Below are positions 2,813 through 23,291 of a stretch of 24,237 nt of DNA, one piece after another (positions within the stretch are counted from its first letter, which is position 1; every line of letters starts with the position of its first letter). A program made the translations under genes and the position numbers. A model generated the notes under the pieces. The model worked only from the letters and a program-made list of their open reading frames with translations, did no database searches and had not been told where the DNA came from. The DNA is taken from positions 1 through 24,237 of the forward strand of contig JBGSIV010000274.1 in assembly GCA_041742355.1 (NCBI GenBank), written 5' to 3'. The DNA is from Candidatus Zixiibacteriota bacterium (GTDB lineage: Bacteria; Zixibacteria; MSB-5A5; GN15; FEB-12).

Positions 2813-2828
2813 TTTGTCGGGTTTAGGA

Positions 2829-2857
2829 TTGACCCCGTACATTCAACGCGATATATT
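2829..2857 (+). promoter_or_regulatory. sigma70-type promoter of prfB-pta-aminotransferase-pckA
   Basis: TTGACC-N17-TATATT, followed by GGAGG (2873-2877) and ATG at 2888. Confidence 0.7.
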
Positions 2858-2887
2858 TAACCCTTTCTTACTGGAGGAAACGGCGAG

Positions 2888-4019
2888 ATGCTTGCAGAGT
2901 TGAGAAACAGCATTCCCGGCCTCAAGGGGCGCCTCGAAAAACTAGCGAGGTATCTTTGACTTAGAGGCGCGTCGGGAGAAAGCAAAAACCCTCGAAGAGG
3001 CCACGTCGGCCCCCGATTTCTGGGGGGACAACCAGCGGGCCCAGGCGATCCTCAAAGAGGCTGCGGTCCACAAGAAGTGGATCGAACGACACCAGCGCCT
3101 GCACTCCGACCTGACGGCAATCGAGGAGCTCCTCGAAATGGCCGATCCCCAGACCAATCCCGCGGAACTGACCGAGCTTGAGGTCGCGCTTTCCGGTATC
3201 AGCGAAGAAATCGAGAAGCTGGAATCCTCGGCCCTGCTTTCGGGGCCGGATGATTTCCGCGATGCTATTGTGACGATACATCCCGGCGCAGGCGGCACGG
3301 AGTCGCAGGACTGGGCGGACATGCTTTTCCGGATGTACAACCGGTGGTCCGAGCGCAACGGGTTTACGATCGAGCTGATGGACTACCAGCCGGGGGATGA
3401 AGCGGGGCTGAAGTCGGCGACGATGGAGATCAAGGGAGAATATGCGTTCGGCTACCTGAAGGCCGAGTCGGGCGTGCATCGCCTGGTGCGCATCTCCCCG
3501 TTCGACGCCGCGGCGCGGCGGCATACCTCGTTTGTCTCGGTGCATGTCTACCCCGTTGTCGAGGGGAATATCGAGATTGAGATCAAGGACGAGGATGTGC
3601 GGGTGGATACGTACCGCGCTTCGGGCGCGGGGGGCCAGCATGTCAACAAGACCTCGTCGGCCATACGGCTGACCCATATCCCGACCGGCATCGTGGTGAC
3701 CTGCCAGACCGAGCGCAGTCAGCACAAGAACAAGGATGCCGCGTTCATGGTCCTCAAGTCCCGCCTCTACCAGCTGCAGAAGGAAGAAGATCTGAAGAAA
3801 ATGGCCAAGTTCGAGGACGCCAAGAAGAAGATCGAGTGGGGATCGCAGATCCGTTCGTACGTTTTCCAGCCGTACCAGATGGTCAAGGACCACCGCACCG
3901 ATGTCGAGACGGGGAACGTGCAGGCGGTGATGGACGGCGAGTTGAACAACTTCATACAGGCGTACCTGACCGACCCGGAACTAAACGATAGCCTCGGCGC
4001 TCTGGCGCCGTCTGAATAA
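2888..4019 (+). CDS. prfB: Peptide chain release factor 2, translated via a programmed +1 frameshift (about 376 aa)
   Basis: A 23-codon ORF0 (MLAELRNSIPGLKGRLEKLARYL) ends at CTT-TGA-C. The +1 frame continues DLEARREK..PDFWGD into the 3138-4019 ORF, which has the SPF and GGQ motifs. Confidence 0.97.
2945..2960 (+). other. RF2 +1 frameshift cassette
   Basis: GCGAGG-TAT-CTT-TGA-C: internal SD-like GAGG, 3-nt spacer, then CTT TGA C. Confidence 0.93.
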
Positions 4020-4051: not shown

Positions 4052-5044
4052 ATGGATGCGGTATCAGTCATAAAGGAACGGGCGAAGAAGAAACACGGAA
4101 CCGTTGTGCTGCCGGAAGGGGCCGAGCCGCGCACAATACAGGCGGCGAAGAAACTGGTGGCCGAGAAGATCGCGAAGGTGATTCTGCTCGGCAATCCGTC
4201 CGCGATCGAGAAAGAGGCGAAGGCGCATGGCCTGGACCTCGAGACGGTGCAGGTAGTACACCCGCCCAAACACGCCGATTTCGACGCGTACGCGGGCGAG
4301 CTGTACGAGATGCGCAAGGCCAAGGGGATGACGCTGGAGCAGGCCCGGGAGGCGATGTGCACCGAGCTGTACTACGGCGCGATGCTCGTGCGGCACGACA
4401 AGGCGGACGCCTCGGTGGCGGGTGCGATCAACACCACCGGCAACGTGCTGCGGGCGGCTATCCACTGTCTCGGCCTGAAGCAGGGGATCAACACGGTCTC
4501 GAGCTGCTTCCTCATGACGATCCCGGAGTACCGGGGTGAGAAGAACAAAGTGTTCGTGTTCGCCGACTGCGCGGTGGTGCCGAATCCGACGCCCGAGCAG
4601 CTGGCATCGATTGCGGTTTCCTCCTCGGACACGCTGAAGTTCCTGCTGGGTGAGGATCCGCGGGTGGCGATGCTGTCGTTTTCGACCAAGGGGTCGGCGA
4701 AGCATGAGGATGTGGACAAGGTGCTGGCCGCACTGGACATCCTGAAGAAGAATTATCCGGACCTGAAGGTTGACGGCGAGTTCCAGCTCGATGCCGCGAT
4801 TGTTCCGGAAGTCGGCGCGAAGAAAGCGCCGGGTTCGGCGATCGCCGGCACGGCGAATGTGCTGGTCTTCCCCGATCTCGATGCGGGCAATATCGGGTAC
4901 AAGCTGACGCAGCGGCTGGCCAACGCCACCGCGACGGGTCCGATCATTCAGGGCCTGGCCAAACCGGCTAATGATTTATCACGCGGCTGCTCGGTCGACG
5001 ACATCGTCGACGTCAGCGCCATAGCGACACTCTTGCGAGGGTAG
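4052..5044 (+). CDS. pta: Phosphate acetyltransferase
   Basis: VLPEGAEPR, FADCAVVPNP, RVAMLSFSTKGS, DGEFQLDAA, FPDLDAGNIGYK, GPIIQGLAKPANDLSRG. Confidence 0.95.
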   Translation: MDAVSVIKERAKKKHGTVVLPEGAEPRTIQAAKKLVAEKIAKVILLGNPSAIEKEAKAHGLDLETVQVVHPPKHADFDAYAGELYEMRKAKGMTLEQAREAMCTELYYGAMLVRHDKADASVAGAINTTGNVLRAAIHCLGLKQGINTVSSCFLMTIPEYRGEKNKVFVFADCAVVPNPTPEQLASIAVSSSDTLKFLLGEDPRVAMLSFSTKGSAKHEDVDKVLAALDILKKNYPDLKVDGEFQLDAAIVPEVGAKKAPGSAIAGTANVLVFPDLDAGNIGYKLTQRLANATATGPIIQGLAKPANDLSRGCSVDDIVDVSAIATLLRG

Positions 5045-5049
5045 GACTA

Positions 5050-6267
5050 ATGAGCATCAGCCAACTTGCCCGGGAGGTCAAAGAGTCGCCGACCCTCAAG
5101 CTCAACGAGGCGGCCCGCCTGTTGAAGGAGCGCGGCGAACCGGTGATTCACCTGGGTGCAGGGGAGCCGAAGAGTCGGGTCCCGATTGACGCCGTGCTTG
5201 CGAGCGCGGCGAAATTGACCTCCGCTGAAATCCGGTACACGCCGACCGAGGGGATTCCCTCGCTCATCAAGGCGATCATCCGGTACACCGAGGAGAACTA
5301 CAACAAGGTTGTCGGCCCCCGCAATGTCGTCGTGTTTTCCGGCGCAAAGCAGGCGTTCTACAACCTCATGTTCACGCTGATCAACCCGCAGGATGAGGTG
5401 ATCATTGTCGCGCCGTACTGGGTGAGCTATCCGGAGATCGTGCGGATGGTCTACGGCGTGCCGGTGATAGTGACGCCGGAGAGCGGGCGGTTCGAGCCGA
5501 CGATCGAGGATATCACGCAGCAGGTCAGCTCGTACACCAAGGCGATCGTGATCAACAGCCCGAACAATCCGTCGGGTGCCGTCTACAGTGAGGAGTTCAT
5601 TGCGCAGATAGTCGAGTACTGCGAGCGCAAGGGGATCTACCTCGTCATGGATGACATCTATCACAAGCTCGTGTTCGGTGGCGGCAAGTGGGCGCCCTGC
5701 TACAAGTACGCGAAGGACGATTCGGACAATTCGCGGCTGATCGTGATCAACGGCGTCTCGAAGTCGTACGCCATGACCGGGTTCCGGATCGGCTGGACGG
5801 TGGCGAACAAGGCGGTGACGGCGGCGATGGTGAATGTGTCGGCGCAGAATACCTCGTGCCCGTCGGTGGTGGCGCAGTCGGCCGCGGCCGGGGCGCTCAC
5901 GGGCGTGCAGAGCAGTGTGGAGAGCCTTCGCCTGACGCTGGAGAACAACGCCAAGGTCATGATGAACGAGCTCAAGGCGTTCAACGGCGTGTGTATCATC
6001 GAGCCGAAGGGAACGTTCTACTGCCTGCCGGATTTCCGGGCGTACGAGAAGGATTCGGTGAAGCTGTCCAAGATGCTCCTGGATCGCGCCCGGGTGGTGG
6101 CGGTTCCCGGCAAGGAGTTCGGCCTCGAGGGGTACCTCCGGCTGTCCTACTGCGGGACGATCAAGGAGATCAAGGAGGGCGTCGCGCGCATCAAGTGGGC
6201 CCTCGATCCTGAGTCGCCGAATGAAATCTACATTGGCGACCGCAAATACCGGAGGGACTGGAAATGA
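5050..6267 (+). CDS. PLP-dependent class I/II aminotransferase (aspartate aminotransferase-like), AT1
   Basis: GEP, YTPTEG, GAKQA, PYWVSY, NSPNNPSG, DDIY, SKSYAMTGFRIG (PLP lysine). Confidence 0.92.
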   Translation: MSISQLAREVKESPTLKLNEAARLLKERGEPVIHLGAGEPKSRVPIDAVLASAAKLTSAEIRYTPTEGIPSLIKAIIRYTEENYNKVVGPRNVVVFSGAKQAFYNLMFTLINPQDEVIIVAPYWVSYPEIVRMVYGVPVIVTPESGRFEPTIEDITQQVSSYTKAIVINSPNNPSGAVYSEEFIAQIVEYCERKGIYLVMDDIYHKLVFGGGKWAPCYKYAKDDSDNSRLIVINGVSKSYAMTGFRIGWTVANKAVTAAMVNVSAQNTSCPSVVAQSAAAGALTGVQSSVESLRLTLENNAKVMMNELKAFNGVCIIEPKGTFYCLPDFRAYEKDSVKLSKMLLDRARVVAVPGKEFGLEGYLRLSYCGTIKEIKEGVARIKWALDPESPNEIYIGDRKYRRDWK

Positions 6268-7934
6268 CCCAGTACATCATAGATGTCAAGACGCCCGCGC
6301 AGAAGGAGGCGGGTTCGGTCAAGAGCGATTACGGCCTGGAGAACCACGGGCTGATCCACCTCCACAATGTTTACTGGAACCTTCCGGACGAAGCGCTCTA
6401 CGAGGAGATCGTGTTCCGGGGCGAGGGGAAGATGACGAAAGGCGGGGCGCTGACGGTCAACACCGGCAAGCACACCGCCCGTTCGGCCAACGACAAGTTT
6501 GTCGTCAAGGAACCCACGACCGAGGACAAGATCTGGTGGGGCGAGTATAACCGTCCCTTCAGCCTCGACAAGTTCCACGGGGTCTGGAACCGCCTGCAGG
6601 GATTCCTGCAGGGGCGCGATCTGTTTGTCCAGGACTGCTATGCCGGTGCGGACAAAAACTATCGCCTGCCGGTGCGGATTATCACCGAATACGCCTGGCA
6701 TTCGCTCTTCGTGCGAAACATGTTCATCACGCCAGAGACGAATGACGAGCTTCGGCACTTCATACCCGAATTCACGATCGTGTCGATTCCGTCGTTCAAG
6801 TCGCTGCCACAGATCGACGGTACGCTGTCGGAGACGTTTATCCTGCTCAATTTCGACGAGAAGCTGTGTGTGATCGGCAACTCCGGCTACGGCGGGGAGA
6901 TCAAGAAAGCGGCCTTCACAGTCATGAACTTCCTGCTCCCCCTCGAGGGTGTGCTGTCGATGCACTGCTCGGCCAATGTCGGCCCCAAGGGGGACTCGGC
7001 GCTGTTTTTCGGGTTGTCGGGCACGGGTAAGACGACGCTGTCGGCCGACCCGAACCGTGGCTTGATTGGCGACGACGAGCACGGCTGGAGCGATGAGGGG
7101 ATCTTCAATGTCGAAGGGGGTTGTTACGCCAAGGTAATCGCCCTCTCCCCCACCGCCGAACCGCAGATTTACGCGTGCACGCACAAGTTCGGGACGATCC
7201 TGGAGAATGTCGTGTTCGATCCGGTGTCGCGCTATCTCGACCTGGATGACGAGCGGCTGACGGAGAATACGCGCGCGGCGTATCCGCTGGAGTTCATCGA
7301 CAACGCTGTGCCGGAGAAGATGGCGGGGCATCCGAAGAATATCGTGATGCTCACCTGCGATGCCTCGGGCGTAATGCCGCCGATCGCGCGGCTGACGCCG
7401 GAGCAGGCGATGTACCACTTCATCTCGGGGTATACCTCGAAGGTAGCCGGTACGGAAGTCGATCTCGGCAAAGAGCCGGAGGTGACGTTCTCGGCCTGTT
7501 TTGGGGCGCCGTTCATGGTGCACCACCCGGCGTACTACGCGGAGCTTCTGCGCAACAAGATGGAGAAATACGGCGCGGAGTGCTGGCTGGTGAACACCGG
7601 CTGGACCGGCGGGCAGTACGGAATCGGCAAGCGCATGAGTATCAAGCACACGCGGGCGCTGTTGAACGCAGCGCTGGACGGCTCGTTGCTCAAAGTCGAC
7701 TTCCGGACCGATCCGGTGTTCGGGTTTGCCGTTCCTAAGACGTGCGAGGGGGTGCCGGACAAGGTGCTTCGCCCGATCGATACGTGGGAAGATCCGAAGG
7801 CGTACGAGGACAAGTACGCGCAGTTGGCCGCGCTCTTTATCGAGAACTTCAAGAAGTTCGCGGAGGGTTGTCCGGAAGAGGTTGTCAAAGCCGGACCGAC
7901 GAAGGACGGCGTGGGCAAGCTGCGGACGGCATGA
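6264..7934 (+). CDS. pckA: Phosphoenolpyruvate carboxykinase (ATP)
   Basis: YGGEIKK, MHCSAN, FFGLSGTGKTTLS, LIGDDEHGW, EGGCYAK, TENTRAAYP, FSACFGAPF; ATGA overlap with AT1. Confidence 0.97.
   Translation: MTQYIIDVKTPAQKEAGSVKSDYGLENHGLIHLHNVYWNLPDEALYEEIVFRGEGKMTKGGALTVNTGKHTARSANDKFVVKEPTTEDKIWWGEYNRPFSLDKFHGVWNRLQGFLQGRDLFVQDCYAGADKNYRLPVRIITEYAWHSLFVRNMFITPETNDELRHFIPEFTIVSIPSFKSLPQIDGTLSETFILLNFDEKLCVIGNSGYGGEIKKAAFTVMNFLLPLEGVLSMHCSANVGPKGDSALFFGLSGTGKTTLSADPNRGLIGDDEHGWSDEGIFNVEGGCYAKVIALSPTAEPQIYACTHKFGTILENVVFDPVSRYLDLDDERLTENTRAAYPLEFIDNAVPEKMAGHPKNIVMLTCDASGVMPPIARLTPEQAMYHFISGYTSKVAGTEVDLGKEPEVTFSACFGAPFMVHHPAYYAELLRNKMEKYGAECWLVNTGWTGGQYGIGKRMSIKHTRALLNAALDGSLLKVDFRTDPVFGFAVPKTCEGVPDKVLRPIDTWEDPKAYEDKYAQLAALFIENFKKFAEGCPEEVVKAGPTKDGVGKLRTA
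7830..7874 (+). repeat. 45-bp direct repeat, left copy (inside the pckA 3' end)
   Basis: GCGCTCTTTATCGAGAACTTCAAGAAGTTCGCGGAGGGTTGTCCG is identical to 13750-13794. Confidence 0.95.
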
Positions 7935-7957
7935 TTGCCGCGTGAGCACAGTGAACA

Positions 7958-7998
7958 GAAGAAAGGCACGACCCTCGGAGGGCCGTGCCTTCTTTTTT
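7958..7998. terminator. Intrinsic, probably bidirectional terminator between pckA and propeller gene 1
   Basis: AAGAAAGGCACGACCCTC-G-GAGGGCCGTGCCTTCTTTTTT hairpin with A-rich and T-rich flanks. Confidence 0.85.
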
Positions 7999-8032
7999 CA
8001 ATTGCAGTGTCGCGTTAGTCGGTACCGCGGAG

Positions 8033-10549
8033 TCACTGACAGGCAGCCGGCGGCGGTCCGCTCTTAAACATGTGTGTCACGAGGTAGGTCAAGTCGGACA
8101 CTGACGTAAGTCCATCGACGTTGACATCCGCATGGGCGGGACAGTCCGGGGAGGGTCCTCCTTTGAAGAGCCGGTTGACCAGGAAGGTCAGATCGCTGAC
8201 TGCTACGCCGCCATCCCCGCTCAGATCGCCGCGCAGCAGGCAGCAGCAGGCGTCGCCAATGCCGTCGAGGTCAGTATCCTTCTGGTCCGGGTTATAGATG
8301 AGCGGGCAGTTGTCGAGGAGGTCTTCGATGTTGTCGCAGTCGGGATCGACGCAGGTTTTGGTCCATGCAGCCAGATAGACTGCGACTTTGTCTCCTGCCT
8401 GCACAAATCTCCCGCCGACGATTAAGTTGCTGTCATAGGAGAGGAGGTCGTACGGCATGTAGCCGGTGCCGGATCCAAGCCCGAACCAGGTGGAGCCGTC
8501 CCATGCGGCGATGCGGTTGGCAGCCACGCCGCCGGCCGTTGTGAACTCGCCGCCGGCGAACAATAAGCCGTCGTGGACCGCGAGGCAGTCGGTTCTCTGA
8601 GCTCCTGACGACAGGGGCGACCAGTTGGAACCATCCCATGCAGCTATCCCTGTAGCGGCTGTTCCCCCGGCGGTTGTGAACAGCCCACAAGCAATCAAGC
8701 GGCCATCATAAATGTCAAGGTCTCTGACCTGCAAATTCATACCGGATCCCAGAGAAGACCAGGAGGTACCGTCCCAGACTGCAATTCGGCTGGCAGGCAG
8801 CCCTCCCGCAGTCGAAAACAACCCACCGGCGTACAGCTTGTTGTCGAAAACCTTGAGGCAATTGACTTGTCCGTTGATGCCCGAGCCGAGAGGCGACCAT
8901 TGCGAGCCGTCCCAGGCGGCGATGTAATTGCACGTTATACCATTGGCCTCGGTGAAGTAGCCGCCGGCGATCAACTGCCCGTTGTATACAGTCAGAGCAA
9001 GCACTGCTCCGACTTCCATGATTCCCAGCGTGGACCACGAGGTTCCATTCCAAGCGGCCACCCCATCCCCTCCGGCGACAAGTTTGTCTTCGTAGGTAGT
9101 AAGGGCAAACACTGGCGTATTCAGTCCTGTATCCAGGGGCAACCACGAGGCGCCGTTCCATGCGGCGATGAAGTCTGCCATTCCATTGCCACTCGTGCCG
9201 AACCATCCGCCAGAGATAAGCATGCCGTCGAAGACGGTCAGAGCCTCGACATAGCCGGTTATGCCGCTCCCGAGCGGAGCCCAATTGAGACCGTCCCAGG
9301 CAGCAATAGACTCACAGTCACGGCCACCAGCGCTCCTGAATAACCCACCGGCAATGAGTTTGCCGTCCCAACTCCCCAGTGCCTCGACCAGGGCGTCCGT
9401 CCCAAGCCCCAGAATCTCCCATGAGGAGCCATCAAACGAAGCGATGCCCCGGCCAAAGTCGAAATCGCCTGCTGCGATCAGCGCATTGCCGTTAACGACC
9501 AGGTCCATCACAGCCCCGCCTATTTCTGTTCCCAGGGCCGACCAAGTCTGGCTGACCGAATCGTATGCTGCGATGGCCTGGGCCGACGTCGGCCCGGCAT
9601 ATGTAAATCCACCCCCGGCGACCAGTTTACCTCCGTAGACAGTGAGCGCCGAGACCCAACCATTTAGTAGTTGTCCCGGAGACGTCCATCCACCGGCGCC
9701 ATCGGAGAATACGAGGCAGCCATTCGGTATATCTCCTCCCTGGGTGAACTCTCCTCCCACAGCAAGGCGGCCTCCAAACTCGCAGAGTGCCCATACGGTT
9801 TCGTTGACCCCCGATCCGATGGCGGACCAGGAAGATCCATTCCATGTGGCCAGACGGTTTACTTGCACTCCCCCGGCGGTAACAAAGTCACCGCCGGCTA
9901 CCAAGCCATAAGGAAGGCTGTCGTACACAGTGAGGGCGTACACAACGCTGTCCATGCCCGACCCCAGTGCCGACCACGAGATGCCGTCCCAGGCGGCAAT
10001 GTAGCTTGCCGAAACACCCCCGGCGGTGCTGAATCTCCCTCCGGCTATCAACTTATTCTGGCACACCGTGAGAGCATAAACCGGCCCATCGGTTCCGGAT
10101 CCGAGGGGCGACCACGATGTTCCATCCCAAGCGGCGATTCTGTTGGCGAGCACACTCCCCGCAACGGTGAAGAACCCGCCTGCAATCAGTTTGCCGTCGA
10201 ACACAGCCAGACAGCGGACGCCCGAATTGGTTCCCGGGAGAGACGACGACATCGAGTTGTCCCAGTAGATGTCATCGGGTACACTGGCAGCGGTCAGGTC
10301 ACCGGTGGTTGGATCGATTTGGAGGTTCAGCCCCTCGATGTCGAAGCCCCCCTCGTAGCCGGCCTCCAGGGCGCCGCTGATATCAACGGAGCCGTTCGGA
10401 GCGAGGAAGTCTCCGATCGGCAAGTCCTTCTGGGCCGAAGCCTGAACCGACTGGCCCTGAGCACACGATTGAGGCTGAATTTCGGTCGCGTTCGCCGCCA
10501 GCGTAGCGAACAGAAGCACGCCGGCGGACAACAGAGTGGATTTGACCAT
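8033..10549 (-). CDS. Secreted repeat protein P1: signal peptide, 14 x ~46-aa beta-propeller-like repeats, TSP3 motif, dockerin-like C-terminus (838 aa)
   Basis: Start reassigned to MVKSTLLSAGVLLFATLAANA (GGGAAGG SD). Repeat VxALTVYxGxLIAGGxFTTAGGxxAxxIAAWDGxxWxxLGSG. Tail DNCPLIYNPDQKDTDLDGIGDAC then GDLSGDGGVAVSDLTFL..ADVNVDGLTSVSDLTYL. Confidence 0.85.
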   Translation of the reverse strand: MVKSTLLSAGVLLFATLAANATEIQPQSCAQGQSVQASAQKDLPIGDFLAPNGSVDISGALEAGYEGGFDIEGLNLQIDPTTGDLTAASVPDDIYWDNSMSSSLPGTNSGVRCLAVFDGKLIAGGFFTVAGSVLANRIAAWDGTSWSPLGSGTDGPVYALTVCQNKLIAGGRFSTAGGVSASYIAAWDGISWSALGSGMDSVVYALTVYDSLPYGLVAGGDFVTAGGVQVNRLATWNGSSWSAIGSGVNETVWALCEFGGRLAVGGEFTQGGDIPNGCLVFSDGAGGWTSPGQLLNGWVSALTVYGGKLVAGGGFTYAGPTSAQAIAAYDSVSQTWSALGTEIGGAVMDLVVNGNALIAAGDFDFGRGIASFDGSSWEILGLGTDALVEALGSWDGKLIAGGLFRSAGGRDCESIAAWDGLNWAPLGSGITGYVEALTVFDGMLISGGWFGTSGNGMADFIAAWNGASWLPLDTGLNTPVFALTTYEDKLVAGGDGVAAWNGTSWSTLGIMEVGAVLALTVYNGQLIAGGYFTEANGITCNYIAAWDGSQWSPLGSGINGQVNCLKVFDNKLYAGGLFSTAGGLPASRIAVWDGTSWSSLGSGMNLQVRDLDIYDGRLIACGLFTTAGGTAATGIAAWDGSNWSPLSSGAQRTDCLAVHDGLLFAGGEFTTAGGVAANRIAAWDGSTWFGLGSGTGYMPYDLLSYDSNLIVGGRFVQAGDKVAVYLAAWTKTCVDPDCDNIEDLLDNCPLIYNPDQKDTDLDGIGDACCCLLRGDLSGDGGVAVSDLTFLVNRLFKGGPSPDCPAHADVNVDGLTSVSDLTYLVTHMFKSGPPPAACQ

Positions 10550-10624
10550 TTGACCTTCCCAGGCTATTAAGAAGACCTTCTGGAATGACCAATAGCGCGA
10601 ACGGGCTAACTGCTCAACGTGTTC

Positions 10625-10653
10625 AATATACTCCAACTTCCTCATTCGCACAA
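10625..10653 (-). promoter_or_regulatory. Putative promoter of P1
   Basis: Minus strand TTGTGC-N17-TATATT. Confidence 0.5.
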
Positions 10654-10684
10654 GCGCTTTCGCCAGACAGTGCTCACCCACGGC

Positions 10685-10833
10685 CGACGCCTCCCCCACG
10701 GTTTCGCCTTGCCAACTGCTTATAATGGATGTACTCAGTCCGGATGAAACTCGCGGCCAATATGACGAACCTGCATCCCTCGGGGCCGATGGCGTATTCT
10801 GCGCGGGTTCGGGAACTCGTCCGGTCAGGATGG
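10685..10833 (+). pseudogene. Remnant of the promoter and first ~29 codons of aminotransferase AT2
   Basis: Aligns with 16691-16837. ATG 10744 gives MKLAANMTNLHPSGPMAYSARVRELVRSG versus MKLSANMTNMRPSGTMAYFARVRELVQAG. Confidence 0.9.
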
Positions 10834-10841
10834 ATTACATC

Positions 10842-10954
10842 GAGGAGTTCATCGCGCAGATAGTCGAGTACTGTGATCGCAAGGGGATCTACCTCGTAAT
10901 GGATGACATCTAACACAAGCTCGTGTTCGCCGGCGGCAAGTGGGCGCCCTGCTA
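10842..10954 (+). pseudogene. Internal remnant of aminotransferase AT1
   Basis: 113 bp matching 5590-5702 with 7 mismatches; EEFIAQIVEYCDRKGIYLVMDDI*HKLVFAGGKWAPC*. Confidence 0.92.
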
Positions 10955-10987
10955 AAAAGGGGCACGGCCGTAAGGTCGTGCCCTTTT
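10955..10987. terminator. Intrinsic terminator downstream of P2
   Basis: AAAAGGGGCACGGCC-GTAA-GGTCGTGCCCTTTT hairpin. Confidence 0.8.
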
Positions 10988-11016
10988 CGATTTTTGTCAG
11001 GGCGCCGCGTCTACTG

Positions 11017-13569
11017 CTACGGCAGCCGCAGTACTGGACAGGGGGCCGGGTCGGCGCCGCCACCGAAGAGCTTGGCGACCAGATGGACGATATCGGCAAT
11101 GTTGGTGTGCTCGTCACCGGTGACATCGGCATGGACGGGGCAGCCGGCATCCGGACCGCCACGGAAGAGGGAAGCCACCAGGTACGTGAGATCAACGATG
11201 TTGATCTTCTGGTCACCGGTCACATCCCCCACCATCGTGCAGCAGCAGGCGTCGCCGACGCCGTTGCTGTCGGTGTCAGCCTGGTCGGGATTGCTGACGA
11301 AGGGGCAGTTGTCGGAAGCATCGGGAACGCCGTCGATGTCGGTGTCGAGGCTTCTGGCCCACTGCGCGAGGTAGGCGGAGACTCTGTTTCCCGCGACCGT
11401 GAAGTGTCCCCCCGCGATCAAAGCGCCAGCGTACACGGTCAGGGCGGCGACATAGGTTCCCTCGATCCCCGAGCCGAGCGGCGACCAGGCCGAACCGTTC
11501 CAGGAGGCGATGCGGTTGGCACCGGTCCCGCCGGCAGTGGTGAATTGTCCCCCCGCGACCAGCTGGCCGTTGTACACGGTTAGAGCCCAGACCTCGTAAT
11601 CCATGCCAGAGCCGAGCGGCGACCAGGCCGAACCGTTCCAGGAGGCGATGTAGTCGGCGCCGGCCTCACCCGCTGTGGTGAAACCTCCACCCGCGATCAA
11701 CTGATCGTCGTACACGCTCAGGGCAGCGACAAAGGAACTCATCCCCGAACCGAGGGGGGACCAAACCGAACCGTTCCAGGAAGCGATGTAGTTGGCGCCC
11801 GTCTCGCCCGCCGTGGTGAAATATCCCCCTGCGATCAAGGCGTCGTTGTACACGGTTAGAGCCCAGACCTCGTAATCCATGCCGGAGCCGAGCGGGGACC
11901 ACGCCGAACCGTTCCAGGAGGCGATGTAGTTGGCGCCGGCCTCACCCGCCGAGGTGAAACTTCCACCTGCAATCAACTCGCCATTGAAAACCGTCAGAGC
12001 CCAGACAGAGCCGTCCATGCCCGAACCCAAAGGGGACCATGCCGAACCGTCCCAGGAGGCGATGTAGCTGGCGTCGGTGTCACCCGCCGTAGTGAAGTCA
12101 CCGCCTGCGACCAAGGCGCCATCGTACACAGTCAGAGCCCAGACGGTGCTATTCATCCCCGAGCCGAGGGGGGACCAGGCCGATCCGTTCCACGAAGCGA
12201 TGTGGTTTGCGTTAGTGCCGCCGGCGGAGGTAAAATTGCCCCCCGCGATCAGGGCACCGTTGTACACGGCTAGCGGCCAGACATCGGCACTCATCCCTGA
12301 GCCGAAAGTGGACCACGTCGAACCGTTCCAGGCTGCAATGTTGTTGGCCGTGTTTCCGCCTGCAGTGCCGAATTGCCCCCCCGCGAAGAGAGCGCCGTTG
12401 TACACCGTCAGGGCCCCGACATAGTTATTCATCCCTGAGCCGAGAGGGGACCAAGTCGAACCGTTCCAGGAGGCGATTCGGTCGGCACTGGCCCCGCCCG
12501 CCGTGGTGAAGTTGCCCCCCGCGATCAGAGCACCGTCGAACACTGTTAGAACCCCGACGATGTAACTCATTCCCGAGCCGAGGGGTGACCACGCCGAACC
12601 GTCCCACGAGGCGATGTAGTTCGCGCCTGTTCCGCCGGCGGTGGTGAAACTACCCCCGGCGATCAAGGAGCTTTCGTACACGGTGAGGGCATGGACATAG
12701 GGGTATGTGCCCCCCATTCCCGATCCCAAAGGTGACCAGGCCGAGCCGTTCCACGAGGCGATGCCGAGGGCACTGGTTCCGCCGGCTTTGTTGAATCGCC
12801 CCCCAGCGATGAGGGCCCCGTCGTACACGGTCAAGGCTTCGACATAGTAACCCATCCCTGAGCCCAGGGGGGACCACGCTGAGCCGTTCCATGAGGCGAT
12901 GTAGTTCGCCCCCGATCCGCCGGCGAGGACAAAACTGCCGCCCGCGATCAAGGCGCCATCGTACACAGTCAAGGCGGCGACAGGGTAATTCATTCCCGAA
13001 CCCAGGGAGGACCAGGCCGAACCATCCCATGAGGCGATGTAGCTGGCGTTGGTTTCACCTGCCGTGGTGAATTGCCCTCCCGCGATCAGGGCGCCGTTGT
13101 ACACAGTCAGGTCCTGGACGGGGGAGTTCATTCCCGAGTCGAGGGGGGACCACGTCGAACCGTCCCAGGAGGCGATGTTGTTGGCAATCGCGCCACCTGC
13201 GATCTGGAAGGAACCGCCGACAATCAAGTTGCTGCCGTAGATAACAGCCGCGCTGACTGCGCCACCCATACCGACGACGGATGGAGAAATGGAATTGTCC
13301 CAGTAGATGTCGTCGGGATCCTCGGCAGGAGACGCAGGGCCAAAGAGAGGTTCGCCTGTAGCCGGGTCGAGGATTGGCTCGAAACCGGCAATATCGAGGG
13401 GGCCCTCGTAGCCCGAGCGACGCGCGGCCTGGAGGTCAAAGCGGCCGTCGGGAGTGAGAAAGTCGGAAACGCTGCGGCCGTGAGTGTACGGCGGAGCACC
13501 AGGGGTGTCGGAAAAGGCAGCGCCCGCGAGGAGCAGGCAGAGGACAAGGAGCGCGAAAGGCATCTTCAT
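11017..13569 (-). CDS. Secreted repeat protein P2: signal peptide, 14 x 46-aa beta-propeller-like repeats, TSP3 motif, dockerin-like C-terminus (850 aa)
   Basis: GGGGAGG SD; MKMPFALLVLCLLLAGAAFS signal; very regular repeats; DNCPFVSNPDQADTDSNGVGDAC; GDVTGDQKINIVDLTYL..ADVTGDEHTNIADI. Confidence 0.88.
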   Translation of the reverse strand: MKMPFALLVLCLLLAGAAFSDTPGAPPYTHGRSVSDFLTPDGRFDLQAARRSGYEGPLDIAGFEPILDPATGEPLFGPASPAEDPDDIYWDNSISPSVVGMGGAVSAAVIYGSNLIVGGSFQIAGGAIANNIASWDGSTWSPLDSGMNSPVQDLTVYNGALIAGGQFTTAGETNASYIASWDGSAWSSLGSGMNYPVAALTVYDGALIAGGSFVLAGGSGANYIASWNGSAWSPLGSGMGYYVEALTVYDGALIAGGRFNKAGGTSALGIASWNGSAWSPLGSGMGGTYPYVHALTVYESSLIAGGSFTTAGGTGANYIASWDGSAWSPLGSGMSYIVGVLTVFDGALIAGGNFTTAGGASADRIASWNGSTWSPLGSGMNNYVGALTVYNGALFAGGQFGTAGGNTANNIAAWNGSTWSTFGSGMSADVWPLAVYNGALIAGGNFTSAGGTNANHIASWNGSAWSPLGSGMNSTVWALTVYDGALVAGGDFTTAGDTDASYIASWDGSAWSPLGSGMDGSVWALTVFNGELIAGGSFTSAGEAGANYIASWNGSAWSPLGSGMDYEVWALTVYNDALIAGGYFTTAGETGANYIASWNGSVWSPLGSGMSSFVAALSVYDDQLIAGGGFTTAGEAGADYIASWNGSAWSPLGSGMDYEVWALTVYNGQLVAGGQFTTAGGTGANRIASWNGSAWSPLGSGIEGTYVAALTVYAGALIAGGHFTVAGNRVSAYLAQWARSLDTDIDGVPDASDNCPFVSNPDQADTDSNGVGDACCCTMVGDVTGDQKINIVDLTYLVASLFRGGPDAGCPVHADVTGDEHTNIADIVHLVAKLFGGGADPAPCPVLRLP

Positions 13570-13634
13570 AGGATCCTCCCCGGATCTGCGCTGATGAGGC
13601 CACCAGTTGATAAGACTGCTGTGCTTATAAGGGC

Positions 13635-13663
13635 AAAGTACAGATAGTGGACTCTTTGGTCAA
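13635..13663 (-). promoter_or_regulatory. Putative promoter of P2
   Basis: Minus strand TTGACC-N17-TACTTT, positionally conserved with the P3 promoter. Confidence 0.65.
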
Positions 13664-13705
13664 GCTCTGATTGGGCACCTGCGACCAGGACCGCGCAGTC
13701 ATGCT

Positions 13706-13748
13706 GTCGGGTTTCTCGGGACCTCCGGTCCCTCGGAACCCGACCTAC
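13706..13748 (-). repeat. GTAG-type REP-like palindrome, copy 1
   Basis: Plus strand GTCGGGTTTCTCGGGACC-TCC-GGTCCCTCGGAACCCGAC-CTAC, i.e. GTAG followed by a bulged hairpin on the minus strand; near-identical to 16634-16676. Confidence 0.85.
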
Positions 13749-13749
13749 G

Positions 13750-13855
13750 GCGCTCTTTATCGAGAACTTCAAGAAGTTCGCGGAGGGTTGTCCGCCGGAG
13801 GCGCTGAAGGCAGGCCCGACGAAAGCGGGCGTGGGGCAAGCTGCGGACGGCGTAG
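13750..13855 (+). pseudogene. Displaced pckA 3' end (variant allele)
   Basis: The first 45 bp are identical to 7830-7874. The rest is a codon-wise variant of the pckA tail with one extra G, ending in TAG instead of TGA. Confidence 0.92.
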
Positions 13856-13877
13856 AATCGAATGGTACTTTGCGAGG

Positions 13878-13911
13878 AAGAAAGGCACGGCCCACAGGCC
13901 GTGCCTTCTTT
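13878..13911. terminator. Intrinsic terminator downstream of P3 and the pckA remnant
   Basis: AAGAAAGGCACGGCC-CACA-GGCCGTGCCTTCTTT, homologous to 7958-7998. Confidence 0.82.
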
Positions 13912-13949
13912 CGTTGTTTGGTTCGAGCAAAGCAGATGCCGGAGCGGGA

Positions 13950-16469
13950 TCACGGACACGCGACCGGATCGGGGCCGCCACGGAAAAGCGATGCGACCAG
14001 GTAGGTGATATCGGCGATGTTGGTGTGCTCATCGCCCGTGACGTCAGCGTGGGTAGGACATCCGGTGCCCGGCCCGCCGCGGAAAAGGGAAGCCACCAGG
14101 TACGTGAGATCAGCGATGTTGATCTTCTGGTCGCTCGTTACATCCCCCACCAGCGCACAGCAGCAGGCGTCGCCGACGCCGTTGCTGTCGGTATCGGCCT
14201 GGTCGGGGTTGGTGACGGAGGGGCAGTTGTCGACCGCATCGGGGACGCCGTCGGTGTCGGTGTCGAGGCCTTTAGTCCATTGAGCGAGGTACGCTGAGAC
14301 TCTGCCACCGGCGACGGAGAAACTTCCCCCCGCAATCAACGCGCTGTCGTAGATCGTCAGAGCACTAACGGAGTAGTCCGTCCCCGAGCCGAGGGGAGTC
14401 CACGAGGACGCGTTCCAGGAAGCAATGTTGTTGGCACCTATCTCGCCCGCAGTGCCGAAATACCCACCTGCGATCAGGGCATCGTTGAAGACCGTCAGGG
14501 CACAAACCGCGTAGTCCATCCCCGACCCGAGAGGCCACCAAACGGACCCGTCCCAAGACGCGATATTATGAGCGCTGACTCCACCCGCGGTGAAGAACTC
14601 CCCGCCCGCGATCAGATTGCCATACCACACTGTCAGGGCAAAGACGGGGCCATCCGTTCCAGAGCCGAGGGGATCCCACCAGGATGACCCGTCCCAGGAA
14701 GCGATGTAGTAGGTGAAGGCACCTCCAGCGATAAGAGTGTCGTTGTAGACTGTCAGAGCAAAGACATAACCATCTAGCCCCCAGCCGAGGGGTGACCAGG
14801 CAGACCCGTCCCACAAAGCGACATTGTTGGCGTTCATCTCGCCCACGGTGGTGAAGTCCCCTCCTACGACAAGGGTATCTTTGTACACGGCCAAAGCATA
14901 GACGGGGCCATTTGTTCCCGCGTCCAAGGGCGACCAGGCAGACCCGTCCCAAGAGGCGATGTGGTTGGCACTGGCTGCACCGGCCGTGGTAAACCAACCT
15001 CCCGCGATTAGAGCGCTTTCGTAGACAGCCAGAGCAACAACAGGATAATCCGTTCCGGCGCCCAAGGGCAACCAGTCGTTCCCATCCCATGCAGCGATGT
15101 TATAGGCGCCGACTCCGCCCACAGTGGTGAACTCTCCCCCTGCGATCAGGGCACCCTTGTATACCGTCAGGGCATAGACCGCTCCATCCATCCCCGGGCC
15201 ACCGAGATGAGCCCACGCGAATCCGTCCCAATACGCGATGTTGCTGGCACTCATTTCGCCTGCGGCGGTGAAAGCACCTGCTGCGATTAGGGCACCGTCG
15301 TACACGCTTAGGGCAGAGACACTATAGCCGCTAATCCCCGAACCGAGGGGCGACCAAGTCGAGCCGTTCCAGGAAGCGACACGGTTAGCGGCAGAATCCC
15401 CCGCAGTGGTGAAGGAGCCCCCCGCGATCAGAGCGCCGTTGTGGACCGTGAGGGCAGAGACGGGGGCATCCATCCCTGAGCCGAGGGGCGACCAGATAGA
15501 CTTGTCCCAAGACGCAATGTATCTGGCGCTGGTCCCGCCCGCAGTGGTGAAAGAGCCCCCCGCGATCAGGGTGTCGTTGCGGACCGTCAATGCAAGGACA
15601 GAGCTATATGAACTCATCCCTGAGCCAAGGGAGGACCAAACCGAGCCGTTCCAAGCGGCTATGCTGTTAGCTGTGAGCCCCCCCGCCGTCGCGAAACTTC
15701 CTCCCGCGATGAGATCGCCATCATACACGGTCAAAGCACGTACCATGCCGTTCGTCCCCAAGCCGAGGGGCGACCATGCAGATCCGTCCCACGAAGCGAT
15801 ATTGTTGGCGTTCATCTCACCTGCGGTGGTGAAGTCCCCCCCTACGACAAGGGTATCTTTGTACACAGCCAAAGCATAGACAGGACCGTTTGTCCCCGCG
15901 TCGAGGGGCGACCAGGCAGACCCGTCCCAAGAGGCAATATTGTTAGCGCTGACGCCGCCCGCGGTGGAGAAATACCCCCCGGCAACCAGAACGCCGTTGT
16001 AAACGGTCAGGGCAAGGACATAACCACTTATCCCCTCGCCGAGAGGCGACCACTCTGACCCGTCCCAAGAAGCAATGCCATAAGTAAGACCACAACGCGC
16101 GACCTTGAACGCCCCGCCTACGACGAGGTGGCCATCGAATACGGTTGCCACAACTACTTCGCGGTCAAAGCTGGTGAAGCACGGAGAGATGGTGTTGTCC
16201 CAGTAGATGTCGTCCGGGTCGTCGGCGGCAGAAGCTGGTTGGAATAAGGGTGCGCCGCTTTCGGGGTCGATGACCGACTGGAAGCCGTCAATCTCCAGCG
16301 AACCTTCGTATCCGGAGCGACGGGCGGCATCGAGATCGAAGCGGCCATCGGGGGTGAGGAAATCGCCCACGCTGCGTCCCTGAGCGGCCGGGGGAGCAAC
16401 CGGACTGTCGGCAAATGTGGCACCCGCGAGGAGCATGCTCAACGCGAAAGATACGAAGGTTGTCCTCAT
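13950..16469 (-). CDS. Secreted repeat protein P3: signal peptide, 14 x ~46-aa beta-propeller-like repeats, TSP3 motif, dockerin-like C-terminus (839 aa)
   Basis: AAGGA SD; MRTTFVSFALSMLLAGATFA signal; same architecture as P1/P2, and its C-terminal ~105 aa closely resemble P2. Confidence 0.88.
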   Translation of the reverse strand: MRTTFVSFALSMLLAGATFADSPVAPPAAQGRSVGDFLTPDGRFDLDAARRSGYEGSLEIDGFQSVIDPESGAPLFQPASAADDPDDIYWDNTISPCFTSFDREVVVATVFDGHLVVGGAFKVARCGLTYGIASWDGSEWSPLGEGISGYVLALTVYNGVLVAGGYFSTAGGVSANNIASWDGSAWSPLDAGTNGPVYALAVYKDTLVVGGDFTTAGEMNANNIASWDGSAWSPLGLGTNGMVRALTVYDGDLIAGGSFATAGGLTANSIAAWNGSVWSSLGSGMSSYSSVLALTVRNDTLIAGGSFTTAGGTSARYIASWDKSIWSPLGSGMDAPVSALTVHNGALIAGGSFTTAGDSAANRVASWNGSTWSPLGSGISGYSVSALSVYDGALIAAGAFTAAGEMSASNIAYWDGFAWAHLGGPGMDGAVYALTVYKGALIAGGEFTTVGGVGAYNIAAWDGNDWLPLGAGTDYPVVALAVYESALIAGGWFTTAGAASANHIASWDGSAWSPLDAGTNGPVYALAVYKDTLVVGGDFTTVGEMNANNVALWDGSAWSPLGWGLDGYVFALTVYNDTLIAGGAFTYYIASWDGSSWWDPLGSGTDGPVFALTVWYGNLIAGGEFFTAGGVSAHNIASWDGSVWWPLGSGMDYAVCALTVFNDALIAGGYFGTAGEIGANNIASWNASSWTPLGSGTDYSVSALTIYDSALIAGGSFSVAGGRVSAYLAQWTKGLDTDTDGVPDAVDNCPSVTNPDQADTDSNGVGDACCCALVGDVTSDQKINIADLTYLVASLFRGGPGTGCPTHADVTGDEHTNIADITYLVASLFRGGPDPVACP

Positions 16470-16533
16470 AGATAGTCCTTGCGTCTATGCTGGTGAAACC
16501 AGCCGATGTAGCGAACCCTGCGCTTACTGACGC

Positions 16534-16562
16534 AAGATACCAATAGTGGATGTTTTGGTCAA
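16534..16562 (-). promoter_or_regulatory. Putative promoter of P3
   Basis: Minus strand TTGACC-N17-TATCTT. Confidence 0.65.
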
Positions 16563-16633
16563 GATCAAAGGAAGATGGGCGACCGAAGCCGCGGAGGAAA
16601 GCCTCGCGGTACCAGGCTGCCGGTCGCGAGCAC

Positions 16634-16676
16634 GTCGGGTTTCTCGGGACCTTCGGTCCCTCCGAACCCGACCTAC
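16634..16676 (-). repeat. GTAG-type REP-like palindrome, copy 2
   Basis: Plus strand GTCGGGTTTCTCGGGACC-TTC-GGTCCCTCCGAACCCGAC-CTAC. Confidence 0.85.
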
Positions 16677-16712
16677 TCCCGGAGCCCGAGCGACGTCTCC
16701 CCCGCTTTCGCC

Positions 16713-16741
16713 TTGCCAATCACCCATAATGGATGTACTCT
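16713..16741 (+). promoter_or_regulatory. Putative promoter of AT2 (leaderless configuration)
   Basis: TTGCCA-N17-TACTCT, then 6 nt, then ATG 16748. The same spacing is kept in the remnant at 10709-10746. Confidence 0.55.
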
Positions 16742-16747
16742 GTCCGG

Positions 16748-17944
16748 ATGAAACTCTCGGCTAATATGACGAACATGCGTCCATCGGGGACGATGGCATA
16801 TTTCGCAAGGGTGCGGGAACTGGTGCAGGCGGGACGGAACATCATCTCGCTGGCGACCGGGGAGCTGCACTCCCCCACGCCGGAGCAGATTTGCCGGGCA
16901 GGAATCCGGGCGATTCGCGAGGGGCACACGAAGTACACGCTCAATCCGGGGCTCCGGGATCTTCGAGGGGCGATCGCGCGGACTGTCTCGGCGGCGCAGG
17001 GTATTCGATACGCGTTCGACCAGGTGATTGTCAGCAACGGCTCGAAGCAGTCGCTGTTCAACGCGCTCTACGCGGCGTGCGGGCCGGGGGACGAAGTGAT
17101 CGTGATGTCGCCGTACTACCCGAGCTACCCCGAGCAGGTGCGTATGGCCGGAGCGACACCGGTGCTGGTGCCGACACGAAGAGGTCAGGGGTATCAGATC
17201 GACGAGGCGTTGCTGCGAAGCCAGATAAGCGAGCGGACGCGGGCGATCGTGATCAACAGCCCAAACAATCCGACCGGGATGGTTTACGACGAGAAATCGC
17301 TTCAGGCAGTAGCGCAGATGGCGAGGGAGACAGAGTGCTGGGTGATCTCGGACGATATCTACGAGGCCATTGTTTATCCCCCTGCGCAGATGCGGTACAT
17401 TCTGCGGGTGGCGCCGGATCTGGCCGATCGGGTCGTTATTGTGAGCGGGTTCTCCAAGAGCTACGCGATGACCGGATGGCGGGTGGGGTACGCGGTCGGG
17501 CCGAAGGGGATAGTCGACGCGATGGCGCTGGTGCAGTCGCACGTGACCAATAATGCGTCATCGGTGTCGCAGCATGCCGCGCTGGCGGCACTGGAGGAGG
17601 GCTCGGATTTCCGCGCAAAGGTGGTAGTGCAGTTGCAGATGCAGCGGGATACCGCGCACGAAGTGCTGACGGGGGTGGCAGGGGTCGAGTGCCCGCTCGG
17701 CGAGGGGGCGTTCTACCTGTTCCCGGATGTGTCGGGAGTGCTCGGGGGGATGGCGGGAGAGCGCGAAATCCGGACATCGTCGGATCTGGCCCTGTACCTG
17801 CTTGAAGAACACGAGGTGGCGGTCGTGCCGGGATCGGCTTTTGGGCTGGAGAGTTGTATCAGAATTTCGTATGCTACAGTTGACAGCCGCCTGAACGAGG
17901 GGTTGCGCCGCCTGCAAACGGGGCTGGAACAAATTCGGCGGTAG
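16748..17944 (+). CDS. PLP-dependent class I/II aminotransferase (aspartate aminotransferase-like), AT2
   Basis: SLATGE, TKYT..PG, GSKQSL, PYYPSY, NSPNNPTG, SDDIY, SKSYAMTGWRVG. Start placed at MKLSAN (16733 also possible). Confidence 0.9.
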   Translation: MKLSANMTNMRPSGTMAYFARVRELVQAGRNIISLATGELHSPTPEQICRAGIRAIREGHTKYTLNPGLRDLRGAIARTVSAAQGIRYAFDQVIVSNGSKQSLFNALYAACGPGDEVIVMSPYYPSYPEQVRMAGATPVLVPTRRGQGYQIDEALLRSQISERTRAIVINSPNNPTGMVYDEKSLQAVAQMARETECWVISDDIYEAIVYPPAQMRYILRVAPDLADRVVIVSGFSKSYAMTGWRVGYAVGPKGIVDAMALVQSHVTNNASSVSQHAALAALEEGSDFRAKVVVQLQMQRDTAHEVLTGVAGVECPLGEGAFYLFPDVSGVLGGMAGEREIRTSSDLALYLLEEHEVAVVPGSAFGLESCIRISYATVDSRLNEGLRRLQTGLEQIRR

Positions 17945-21697: not shown

Positions 21698-21719
21698 ATG
21701 GGGGGGCAGGAACAAGTTT

Positions 21720-22235
21720 GTAGGTCAAATCCCTTTTGCCAACCGCCGTATCATTTGCACCCCTAATACAGTGCGGCGGGCGAGAACGGAGATCGGCGTT
21801 GCGAGGGATTTGACATGGCCTCGGCGAATGTCAAATCCCTCTGGGTCGTCGCACCCAATCATCGGATGCCAAATCCTGTGCGGCCAGGTTCCATCAAGCG
21901 GATCAAAAGGGGATTTGACCTACGGCTGATCGCGATCGCTTCGCTAACCCTTGCAACAGAGATGACTTTGCGAGGGATTTGACATGGCCTCTGCGAATGT
22001 CAAATCCCTCTAATTGGTCGCACCCAATCATCGGTTGCCAAATCCTTTGCAATCAGGTTCCATCAAGCGGCTCAAAAAGGGATTTGACCTACCGATTTTG
22101 AACCGGGGGTCCGGCGTTGAGAGGGATTTGAGGTTGTTTCTGTCAAATCCCTCTCAACGATCACTCCCGATTGCCGTTGGCTTAGTTCCGCGCAGACGGT
22201 TTTACTCGAGCCGTTCAAAAAGGGATTTGACCTAC
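21720..22235. repeat. RAYT-flanking REP/REPIN-like array, left
   Basis: Ten copies of GTCAAATCCC/GGGATTTGAC (one variant). GTAG at 21720; CTAC ends at 21923, 22092 and 22235. Confidence 0.9.
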
Positions 22236-22260
22236 AACTCGGAAAGCAGAGCTGGCGACG

Positions 22261-22764: not shown

Positions 22765-22886
22765 GGCCCAACTTGCTCCTGCCGAGAGTGTAATCGCAAC
22801 CCTTCTGGAGTTTTCAGCTTTGGAGAGACGCTGTCAATCACATTCTCCCATGCCGACAAAGGCTCGCCGCACCGAAGCACGTAGCC

Positions 22887-23240: not shown

Positions 23241-23291
23241 GGACTTCCTTCCAGCCGTTCGTACATCCCGAAAAGCCAAGGACGGGGATTC

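Follow-up and report, generated by a model that had tools for sequence, protein, structure and literature searches.

A tandem array of secreted propeller-dockerin genes between pckA and an aminotransferase gene in a Zixibacteria genome, probably stacked from sister-lineage alleles

How does a genome come to hold three related genes side by side at a site that is empty in its congeners, with broken pieces of the neighboring genes lying between them? The question is raised by a stretch of 24,237 nt from a Candidatus Zixiibacteriota bacterium (NCBI GenBank assembly GCA_041742355.1, contig JBGSIV010000274.1), referred to here as the window, which is one whole contig of a metagenome-assembled genome of 4.37 Mb (94% complete, 310 contigs). 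Between pckA, encoding PEP carboxykinase (ATP) (6264–7934, plus strand, PF01293), and AT2, encoding a class I/II aminotransferase (plus strand, start at 16733 or 16748, end at 17944), lie three co-oriented minus-strand genes, P1 (8033–10549, 838 aa), P2 (11017–13569, 850 aa) and P3 (13950–16469, 839 aa), predicted to encode secreted propeller-dockerin proteins. Their pairwise identities are 48% (P1-P2), 46% (P1-P3) and 64% (P2-P3). An initial annotation, made from the sequence alone, described three paralogues separated by pieces of the flanking genes, and proposed that the slot had gained them additively from related genomes through flank homology. Both parts of the description hold. The proposal is supported indirectly, by an empty slot in 3/3 congeners, by purifying selection on the remnants and by the position of P1 outside the P2-P3 pair. 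We suggest that the array was probably stacked when sister-lineage versions were joined in tandem in two or three rare recombination events, for which housekeeping recombination suffices.

The spacer between P1 and P2 contains a remnant of AT2 (AT2', 10685–10841, plus strand) fused to a remnant of AT1 (AT1', 10836–10957, plus strand), followed by a terminator. AT1, the resident class I/II aminotransferase gene on the far side of pckA (5050–6267, plus strand, PF00155), supplies an internal stretch of 38 codons, which is 92% identical to 5584–5705 by blastn. AT2' comprises the right half of the ancestral intergenic hairpin, the AT2 promoter region and the first ~35 codons, and is 81% identical to 16691–16843. 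The two pieces meet with a few bases of overlap. The spacer between P2 and P3 contains a repetitive extragenic palindromic (REP) element at 13706–13748, followed by a pckA tail (last 35 codons) and terminator at 13750–13911, 79% identical to 7830–7995. Searched against the whole genome, the remnants matched with E-values of 2e-44, 1e-34 and 6e-31, far beyond chance.

The pckA remnant, described earlier as diverged, is so only in its last part. Its first 45 nt (13750–13794, plus strand) are identical to 7830–7874 (plus strand), codons 523–537 of the resident gene, and form an exact direct repeat that is likely the crossover or anchor tract. The following stretch (13795–13855, plus strand) is a diverged C-terminal allele, with its stop at the same codon by a different triplet. 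The step at 7874/7875, from 0/45 to 16/60 differences, is significant (p 5e-5). Signs of decay are present in the remnants: AT1' has one in-frame stop and a second at the joint, the pckA tail has one extra base, and there are changes at otherwise invariant residues.

A genome-wide filter for further flank remnants on the same contig returned seven matches, of which two are this locus, two are paralogue-to-paralogue matches in a gene run at C139, and three were not inspected singly; the filter missed AT2' and is blind across the 310 contig breaks. Within these limits, the source genome yielded no other locus that stood out as being of this kind. Self-comparison of eight loci with homologues of the family, in five other genomes, showed no flank scraps.

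Remnants and resident genes were then compared for synonymous (dS) and non-synonymous (dN) divergence. A fragment copied in place would be dead at once, and would be expected to decay neutrally. The pooled remnants gave dS 0.51 and dN 0.089 (22.5 synonymous and 16.5 non-synonymous differences), and the resulting dN/dS of 0.17 agrees with the mainly synonymous change reported in the initial annotation. Values for the individual pieces were similar in ratio: dS 0.21, dN 0.03 and dN/dS 0.16 for AT1', dS 0.67, dN 0.13 and dN/dS 0.19 for AT2', and dS 0.87, dN 0.15 and dN/dS 0.17 for the last 19 codons of the pckA tail. Over the same segments, the working genes of congeners G002 and G003 gave dN/dS of 0.22 and 0.20 against the resident genes. 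In ~500 matched simulations of neutral decay in place, with a resident-branch acceptance of 0.1–0.3 set by the analyst's choice, the observed synonymous share was reached in 0–0.8% of cases for the pooled remnants, in 0.9–2.8% for AT2' and the tail, and in 13–21% for AT1' alone. Neutral decay of resident copies, named in the initial annotation as a threat to its own proposal, therefore rarely matches the pooled data. Together with the orthologue-like dN/dS, this suggests that the remnants accumulated their differences elsewhere, while still functional alleles, and so favors addition from sister lineages.

The divergences fall into two depth classes, a near class (AT1' at dS 0.21, and the 45 bp of pckA with 0 differences) and a far class (AT2' at 0.67 and the tail at 0.87); AT1' and AT2' differ in divergence with Fisher p 0.01. 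The paralogues themselves are more divergent, as had been noted. At four-fold sites P1 differs from P2 or P3 by 68–70%, and P2 from P3 by 36% (C-terminus) to 57% (all), a depth comparable to the far class. The remnants are far younger than the P1/P2 split, with 68% of four-fold sites different at that split against 0–20% in the remnants, and the adjacent remnants show 0/45 and 8/114 differences. Comparison of the P1-P2 four-fold gap with AT1' at 7% indicates that P1 and P2 are not products of the event that left AT1'. Trees of 14 rows, with the truncated G009 sequence omitted from the C-terminal tree, placed P2 and P3 as sisters (93/85 in the C-terminal tree; SH-like approximate likelihood ratio test (SH-aLRT) support of 95 in a quick full-length analysis), and P1 fell with paralogues of other loci.

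The same features can be read as the outcome of old tandem duplications in place of an AT1-pckA-P-AT2 unit, the copies remaining functional for long and being trimmed late, with patchy conversion of short tracts and with P1 either swapped in later or diverging fast. Long-lived working duplicates would give low dN/dS too. The joints show the downstream-to-upstream geometry of tandem duplication, the sisters P2 and P3 have promoters and REPs that are homologous, conversion-like tracts exist, and the private non-synonymous changes at invariant residues are real decay. Under this history, however, selection must have maintained duplicates of pckA and AT2 up to dS 0.7–0.9 before they were lost, yet AT1', which shares its spacer with AT2', stands at 0.21. 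It must also accommodate a P1 from another subfamily and the rejection of immediate neutral decay by the pooled simulation. We consider duplication in place unlikely.

The initial annotation had recommended comparing the pckA-AT2 interval across relatives. The gap was found to be empty (75–140 nt) in 3/3 congeners (G001, G002 and G003), where pckA is syntenic, and in G022. The slot thus being empty in the congeners, all three genes arrived after the split from those species; the congeners lack all three, not P1 and P2 alone. A hairpin occupies the congener gap; only its right arm survives in spacer 1 and in the AT2 promoter. Among the other five genomes, four have pta directly before AT2 and one showed neither gene in the vicinity. 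The absence of AT1 and pckA between pta and AT2 in the four more distant genomes (compare window 4052–7934) points to at least one earlier gene gain in the region.

Our proposal for the origin of the array has four steps. One gene would have entered the pckA-AT2 gap in an ancestor of this sub-clade. The content of the slot would then have diverged or been replaced in sister lineages, giving a P1 type, P2 and P3. Incoming chromosomal DNA, by transformation or transduction, would have recombined through homology on one side and through an illegitimate joint with short overlap on the other, so that alleles came to stand in tandem and were not swapped. Deletion would finally have trimmed the redundant core-gene copies, each event leaving a scrap of a flank gene of the other lineage. 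Joining by homology on one side and illegitimately on the other is a known route, homology-facilitated illegitimate recombination (HFIR). ComEC and DprA are present in the source genome, a weak pointer to uptake, as 10–11 of 14 controls have them.

In the simplest assignment, AT1-pckA-P1-AT2' and AT1'-P2-REP-45bp would be near relatives (dS ~0.2), and the diverged pckA tail with its terminator, P3, the second REP and AT2 would be one fragment from a farther sister (dS 0.7–0.9, like P2 against P3), crossed in at the conserved 45-bp end of pckA. A single split would then account for the depths of the tail, of AT2 and of P2/P3, and the assignment agrees with the existence of a sister pckA that is 98% identical and has the resident-type tail. 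A second sister pckA allele is 95% identical. At three residues, a working AT2 homologue (73%) agrees with AT2' and not with the resident AT2. The source of one close AT2 homologue assigns it to candidate division Zixibacteria. In codon-position G+C, AT2 did not stand out clearly among the window genes (0.78 vs 0.75–0.87).

Several observations weigh against stacking of sister-lineage alleles, or against this assignment of the pieces. AT1' taken alone is compatible with neutral decay (P 0.13–0.21), and the remnant segments are short (19–37 codons). Tree support is moderate, and the N-terminal tree leaves P2 and P3 unresolved. P2 and P3 share exact runs of 35 and 27 nt, and blade-to-blade copies occur inside each gene; gene conversion acting here means that the identity of the 45-bp tract need not be a crossover, and that four-fold divergence in the propellers is inflated. 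A mirror model, in which tail-T1-P1-AT2' is the far fragment, also fits the two depth classes. Terminator likeness favors neither assignment cleanly, and the grouping of the terminators does not follow the proposed lineages (T1 is closer to T3 than to T2). Finally, neither a donor genome nor a slot allele with one or two genes was found in the genome, metagenome and protein searches. In the protein searches the nearest AT2 stood at 73% and the nearest pckA alleles at the 98% and 95% given above, none with the private residues of the remnants. A non-exhaustive protein search with P1, capped at 8000 candidates, gave nothing above 51% among the best 120 of 190 matches, and a metagenome scan with AT2 gave 80 loci with a best identity of 46%, no close relative among them.

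The 45-bp exact repeats bracket P1 and P2 in a block of 5.92 kb, an insert below 20 kb between repeats above 30 bp with no mobility genes. They invite the reading that P1 and P2 form an integrative module, with attachment sites (attL/attR) at the 3' end of pckA and an integrase acting in trans, which can excise or amplify. Replacement of a gene end resembles the habit of prophages that target icd. In addition, one contig from run X2 (another study, depth 4–6) began its alignment at exactly 7830, preceded by 57 unaligned letters, as the joint of a circle would give; against this, at depth 4 an assembler may as easily have traced its path through a repeat that exceeds the word size. The lack of an integrase stated in the initial annotation was confirmed among the window ORFs (open reading frame list and Pfam), and the genome-wide search gave only two PF00589 tyrosine recombinase matches, both on other contigs, with serine recombinases not searched. 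There is no mobility gene inside the block, viral contigs searched with P1 gave no match, and depth in the source run is flat at ~8–10. We regard such a module as highly improbable.

A chimeric assembly of co-occurring strains was likewise weighed for this metagenome-assembled genome of 310 contigs. Contigs were built independently from the probable source run, and the longest pieces were listed. A 917-nt contig covers 10353–11269, with all spacer-1 joints, and has 0 differences from the window, as do the pieces 13222–13779 and 14163–17105; depth is flat at 7.8–10.4 throughout the array. Since these contigs span spacer 1 with no difference, a chimera is unlikely. Across the spacer-2 joint the listed source-run piece extends for only 30 letters, one fewer than the tool requires, and 13780–14162 is not among the pieces listed; for the phasing of the two pckA tails, the basis is the original assembly. 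X2, however, carries 13834–14356 (diverged tail, T3 and P3) on one contig, and remnants with stops and 8–20% divergence cannot come from an assembler. A chimera is hardly credible.

The same runs bear on whether the array is still changing, as the initial annotation had supposed. All three genes were matched in 3/3 non-source runs, a set of few low-depth samples in which adjacency was shown in part. Pieces in X3 and X4 had 0–2 differences. X2 represents a strain whose pckA and AT2 pieces differ by 2.4% (29/1211); its P1 block differs by 0.5% (13/2607), P2 by 7.7% (85/1098), the end with the diverged tail, T3 and P3 by 5.0%, and the middle of P3 by 0.5%. This uneven divergence suggests that the locus is mosaic between strains. 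The gene count at the slot was 0 in the congeners and 3 in every sample of the species seen (few, at low depth). The idea of a variable, still-growing array is not supported, nor is a dedicated or ongoing cassette system, and signs of current turnover were not seen. The locus appears to be one-off and stable, a case study and not a new machine.

The initial annotation had also suggested nicking by a REP-associated tyrosine transposase (RAYT). The REP in spacer 2 (13706–13748, minus strand) belongs to a family with a GTAG foot, and a single base separates this foot from the joint to the pckA sequence. A second copy (16634–16676, minus strand) is 95% identical and occupies the same position relative to the P3 promoter. 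The three terminator-like hairpins, T1 (7965–7989, bidirectional), T2 (10961–10982, possibly in the opposite orientation) and T3 (13884–13905), had been described as homologous. All three are foot-less members of a dispersed 42-site REP family, and their likeness alone is therefore no proof of common descent. The 42 sites are in the source genome, with none in 4/4 relatives; the spacer-2 family has 73 sites, against 0, 0, 1 and 0 in four relatives. Near absence of the two families from the three congeners suggests a lineage-specific burst, and their confinement to the source genome among five genomes suggests that all units came from this sub-clade.

The one-base distance between foot and joint speaks for a RAYT/TnpA-REP that nicked at REPs and moved or joined cassettes. 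The terminator family brackets the RAYT on contig C214, and the genome has six RAYT-like loci. A like role was proposed for prochlorosin genes, for which the authors later found no strong evidence either way (10.1101/2020.03.09.984088). TnpA-REP is described as cutting at CT or CA (PMC8266576); the joint here reads C|C on the REP strand and the pckA site C|G. REPs were not enriched beside dockerin genes (12/76 vs 228/1106 gaps of at least 300 nt, p 0.38). P1 has no REP of the spacer-2 family, and on the AT2/AT1 side neither spacer-1 joint has one. None of the six RAYT loci is flanked by that family, and the RAYT of the window itself sits amid a third family, other than those at the array. Hairpins are, moreover, plain deletion end-points. 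RAYT action at the array is improbable, and this part of the earlier proposal was not borne out.

Several further observations concern these repeats. The 487 intergenic GTAG-foot REP sites of the source genome fall into at least 17 families, the commonest of which has no adjacent RAYT among the six loci. Window 21714–23246 contains a RAYT gene (Y1_Tnp, 22261–22764, minus strand) flanked by six copies of its own GTAG-foot REP family and by longer mosaic repeats of 150–200 nt, making a complete REPtron. T1 to T3 have lost the GTAG foot and gained A/T runs, and seem to be domesticated bidirectional terminators that replace the ancestral pckA-AT2 hairpin.

Each of the three paralogues encodes 14 blade repeats of ~46 aa, a Ca-binding linker and a dockerin; for P1 a signal peptide and an N-domain are also predicted, and its subfamily differs from that of P2 and P3. 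Pfam identified a Rax2-like propeller in all three and TSP_3 in P2 and P3. Dockerin_1 (PF00404) was found in all three genes at E 4e-5 to 9e-4 in the protein scan, where only P1 passed the cut-off, and all three passed in the genome scan. The pattern of a type I dockerin, a C-terminal duplicated motif with an N-terminal signal peptide, is present, the signal peptide being judged by eye. A single-sequence AlphaFold model of P2 was poor (predicted local distance difference test score (pLDDT) 53) and a fold search from it was meaningless; an AlphaFold2 model from a 9-sequence alignment (mean pLDDT 79, predicted template modeling score (pTM) 0.51) was used instead. Foldseek with this model retrieved tandem seven-bladed propellers (2ymu and the BT4663/BT4673 sensor domains) at 10–14% identity, a match of predicted fold, not of function. 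The proteins are accordingly comparable to Rax2-like/DUF5122 double propellers with type I dockerin (PF12768, PF17164, PF00404), sharing 14 blades of ~46 aa and the tandem seven-bladed model, with only that 10–14% identity to solved chains. The proteins would be exported, held by the dockerin, and present a variable propeller surface for binding. From domains only, we infer the surface-binder role given in the initial annotation. At least 190 relatives were found at E<=1e-150, with varied C-terminal anchors, and the source genome has 63 Pfam dockerin matches, or 111 genes by a home-made profile, with 16 tandem runs among those.

Within the genes, P3 has near-identical blades 2-3 and 10-11 (gene positions ~534 and ~1512, seven blades apart) and P2 has near-identical blades 11 and 13 (two apart), which read as recent intragenic conversion between the two propellers. 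At 11017–11040 the family stop after the last cysteine is lost in P2, which reads on by a few residues. Elsewhere in the source genome, C139:17868-25718 holds four tandem paralogues of ~650 aa whose one propeller is built of the same type of repeat, with nucleotide matches of 76–79% among them; the remnant filter saw no flank scraps there. The congener G002 has a perfect direct repeat of 1345 bp (L120:6654-7998 and 10543-11887) at the 3' ends of two large, neighboring genes for secreted proteins, from recent conversion, duplication or assembly collapse. G039 has tandem dockerin genes (L122:7027-7967 and 11614-12556) that are 76% identical across a 950-bp stretch taking in the C-terminus and the DNA after it; 260 bp of that downstream DNA recur a third time at L122:4392-4659, ahead of the first dockerin gene.

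Sigma70-like promoters of their own had been assigned to all three genes, and this was upheld for two. The P3 promoter (16534–16562, minus strand) matches the consensus at 9/12 positions. The P2 promoter (13635–13663, minus strand; 8/12) is recognized by homology to those of P3 and four other family genes of the genome, with which it has a -35 and a spacer motif in common. Candidates before P1 reached only 7–8/12 matches and lack the family -35/spacer motif. The conserved promoter lies upstream of P2, P3 and paralogues on C284, C266, C107 and C121, and the motif inside its 17-nt spacer is possibly a regulator site travelling with the propeller gene. Farther off in the window, the ORF in the prfB region (2826–4019) is called only from 3138; in prfB, a short first part is typical of programmed frameshift.

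Tandem surface-protein arrays are usually read as duplications in place. Here, scraps of flank genes point to assembly from sister-lineage alleles without a mobile element, the signature being orthologue-like dN/dS, two divergence depths and a sharp crossover step. More tentatively, variable slots for surface proteins may be enzyme-free accretion points, where on uptake of a cousin's locus a homologous joint paired with an illegitimate one keeps both alleles, and short repeats, such as the 45 bp of pckA, leave the added block excisable or amplifiable. If so, the locus would preserve, as a dated fossil record, a general route to paralogue arrays that recurs in unrelated phyla, and the "tandem duplicates" it produces would really be captured alleles. 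A scalable test would be to look for diverged flank scraps between paralogues and their dN/dS, to learn how often bacteria add alleles at integrase-free hotspots and do not swap them. In literature searches with subscription journals largely uncovered, we found no paper joining Zixibacteria with dockerin or secreted beta-propeller, and none on this pattern (tandem arrays with flanking core-gene remnants, or interspecies tandem duplication with pseudogene remnants).

Among known systems, an integron-type array differs from this locus, in which no site-specific recombinase lies beside the genes, the spacers differ from each other (AT2'/AT1' against REP/pckA tail) and P2 and P3 have promoters of their own; spacer comparison showed no recurring attC-like site, no covariance-model search having been made. 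Insertion with long target duplication (Furuta et al. 2010, PMC2853133) likewise involves an insert below 20 kb, no mobility gene and a repeat above 30 bp, often at a gene 3' end, with cases of 46–47 bp against 45 bp here. Those cases carry restriction-modification cargo and have a matching empty-site genome, whereas the cargo here is secreted proteins, with no restriction-modification by Pfam; moreover, homology here runs past the repeat as a diverged allele, and the second joint uses other flank genes. In the additive flexible genomic islands of Alteromonas (PMC4898812), cassettes also accumulate at one position and the end of the target gene is repeated. Those islands mostly have tRNA/tmRNA targets, site-directed recombination and unrelated, clone-variable cargo; here the flanks are protein-coding, the cargo is paralogous, the strains sampled have the same three genes, and there is no tRNA or integrase.

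Transformation merodiploids of Streptococcus pneumoniae (PMC3784515) show that incoming DNA can trigger unequal crossing-over and tandem duplication without an integrase. Their duplications are transient, of 100–900 kb, and arise at insertion sequence (IS) repeats, whereas here a few-kb tandem of diverged alleles is fixed and the duplicate core genes are trimmed. The lpl cluster of Staphylococcus aureus (PMC2568036) shares tandem surface-protein paralogues, reshuffling by homologous recombination and a strain mosaic, but there recombination runs through a conserved block inside the paralogues, with no flanking core-gene scraps described. Another parallel is with hotspots free of mobile genetic elements (MGEs; Oliveira 2017, PMC5635113), which share accessory genes between core genes, the absence of an integrase or MGE, housekeeping recombination through flank homology, and the presence of ComEC/DprA. 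Excess flanking recombination would fit the pckA identity step and the strain mosaic, seen with one genome per species. Those hotspots are defined by high strain turnover, whereas here the three genes were matched in all three non-source runs, few and of low depth; and for them a double crossover was proposed, by which content is swapped without a scar, whereas here the alleles stand side by side with diverged flank scraps. By analogy, the locus would work like an MGE-free hotspot but keep both alleles, and what is new would be a variant of the known integrase-free hotspots.

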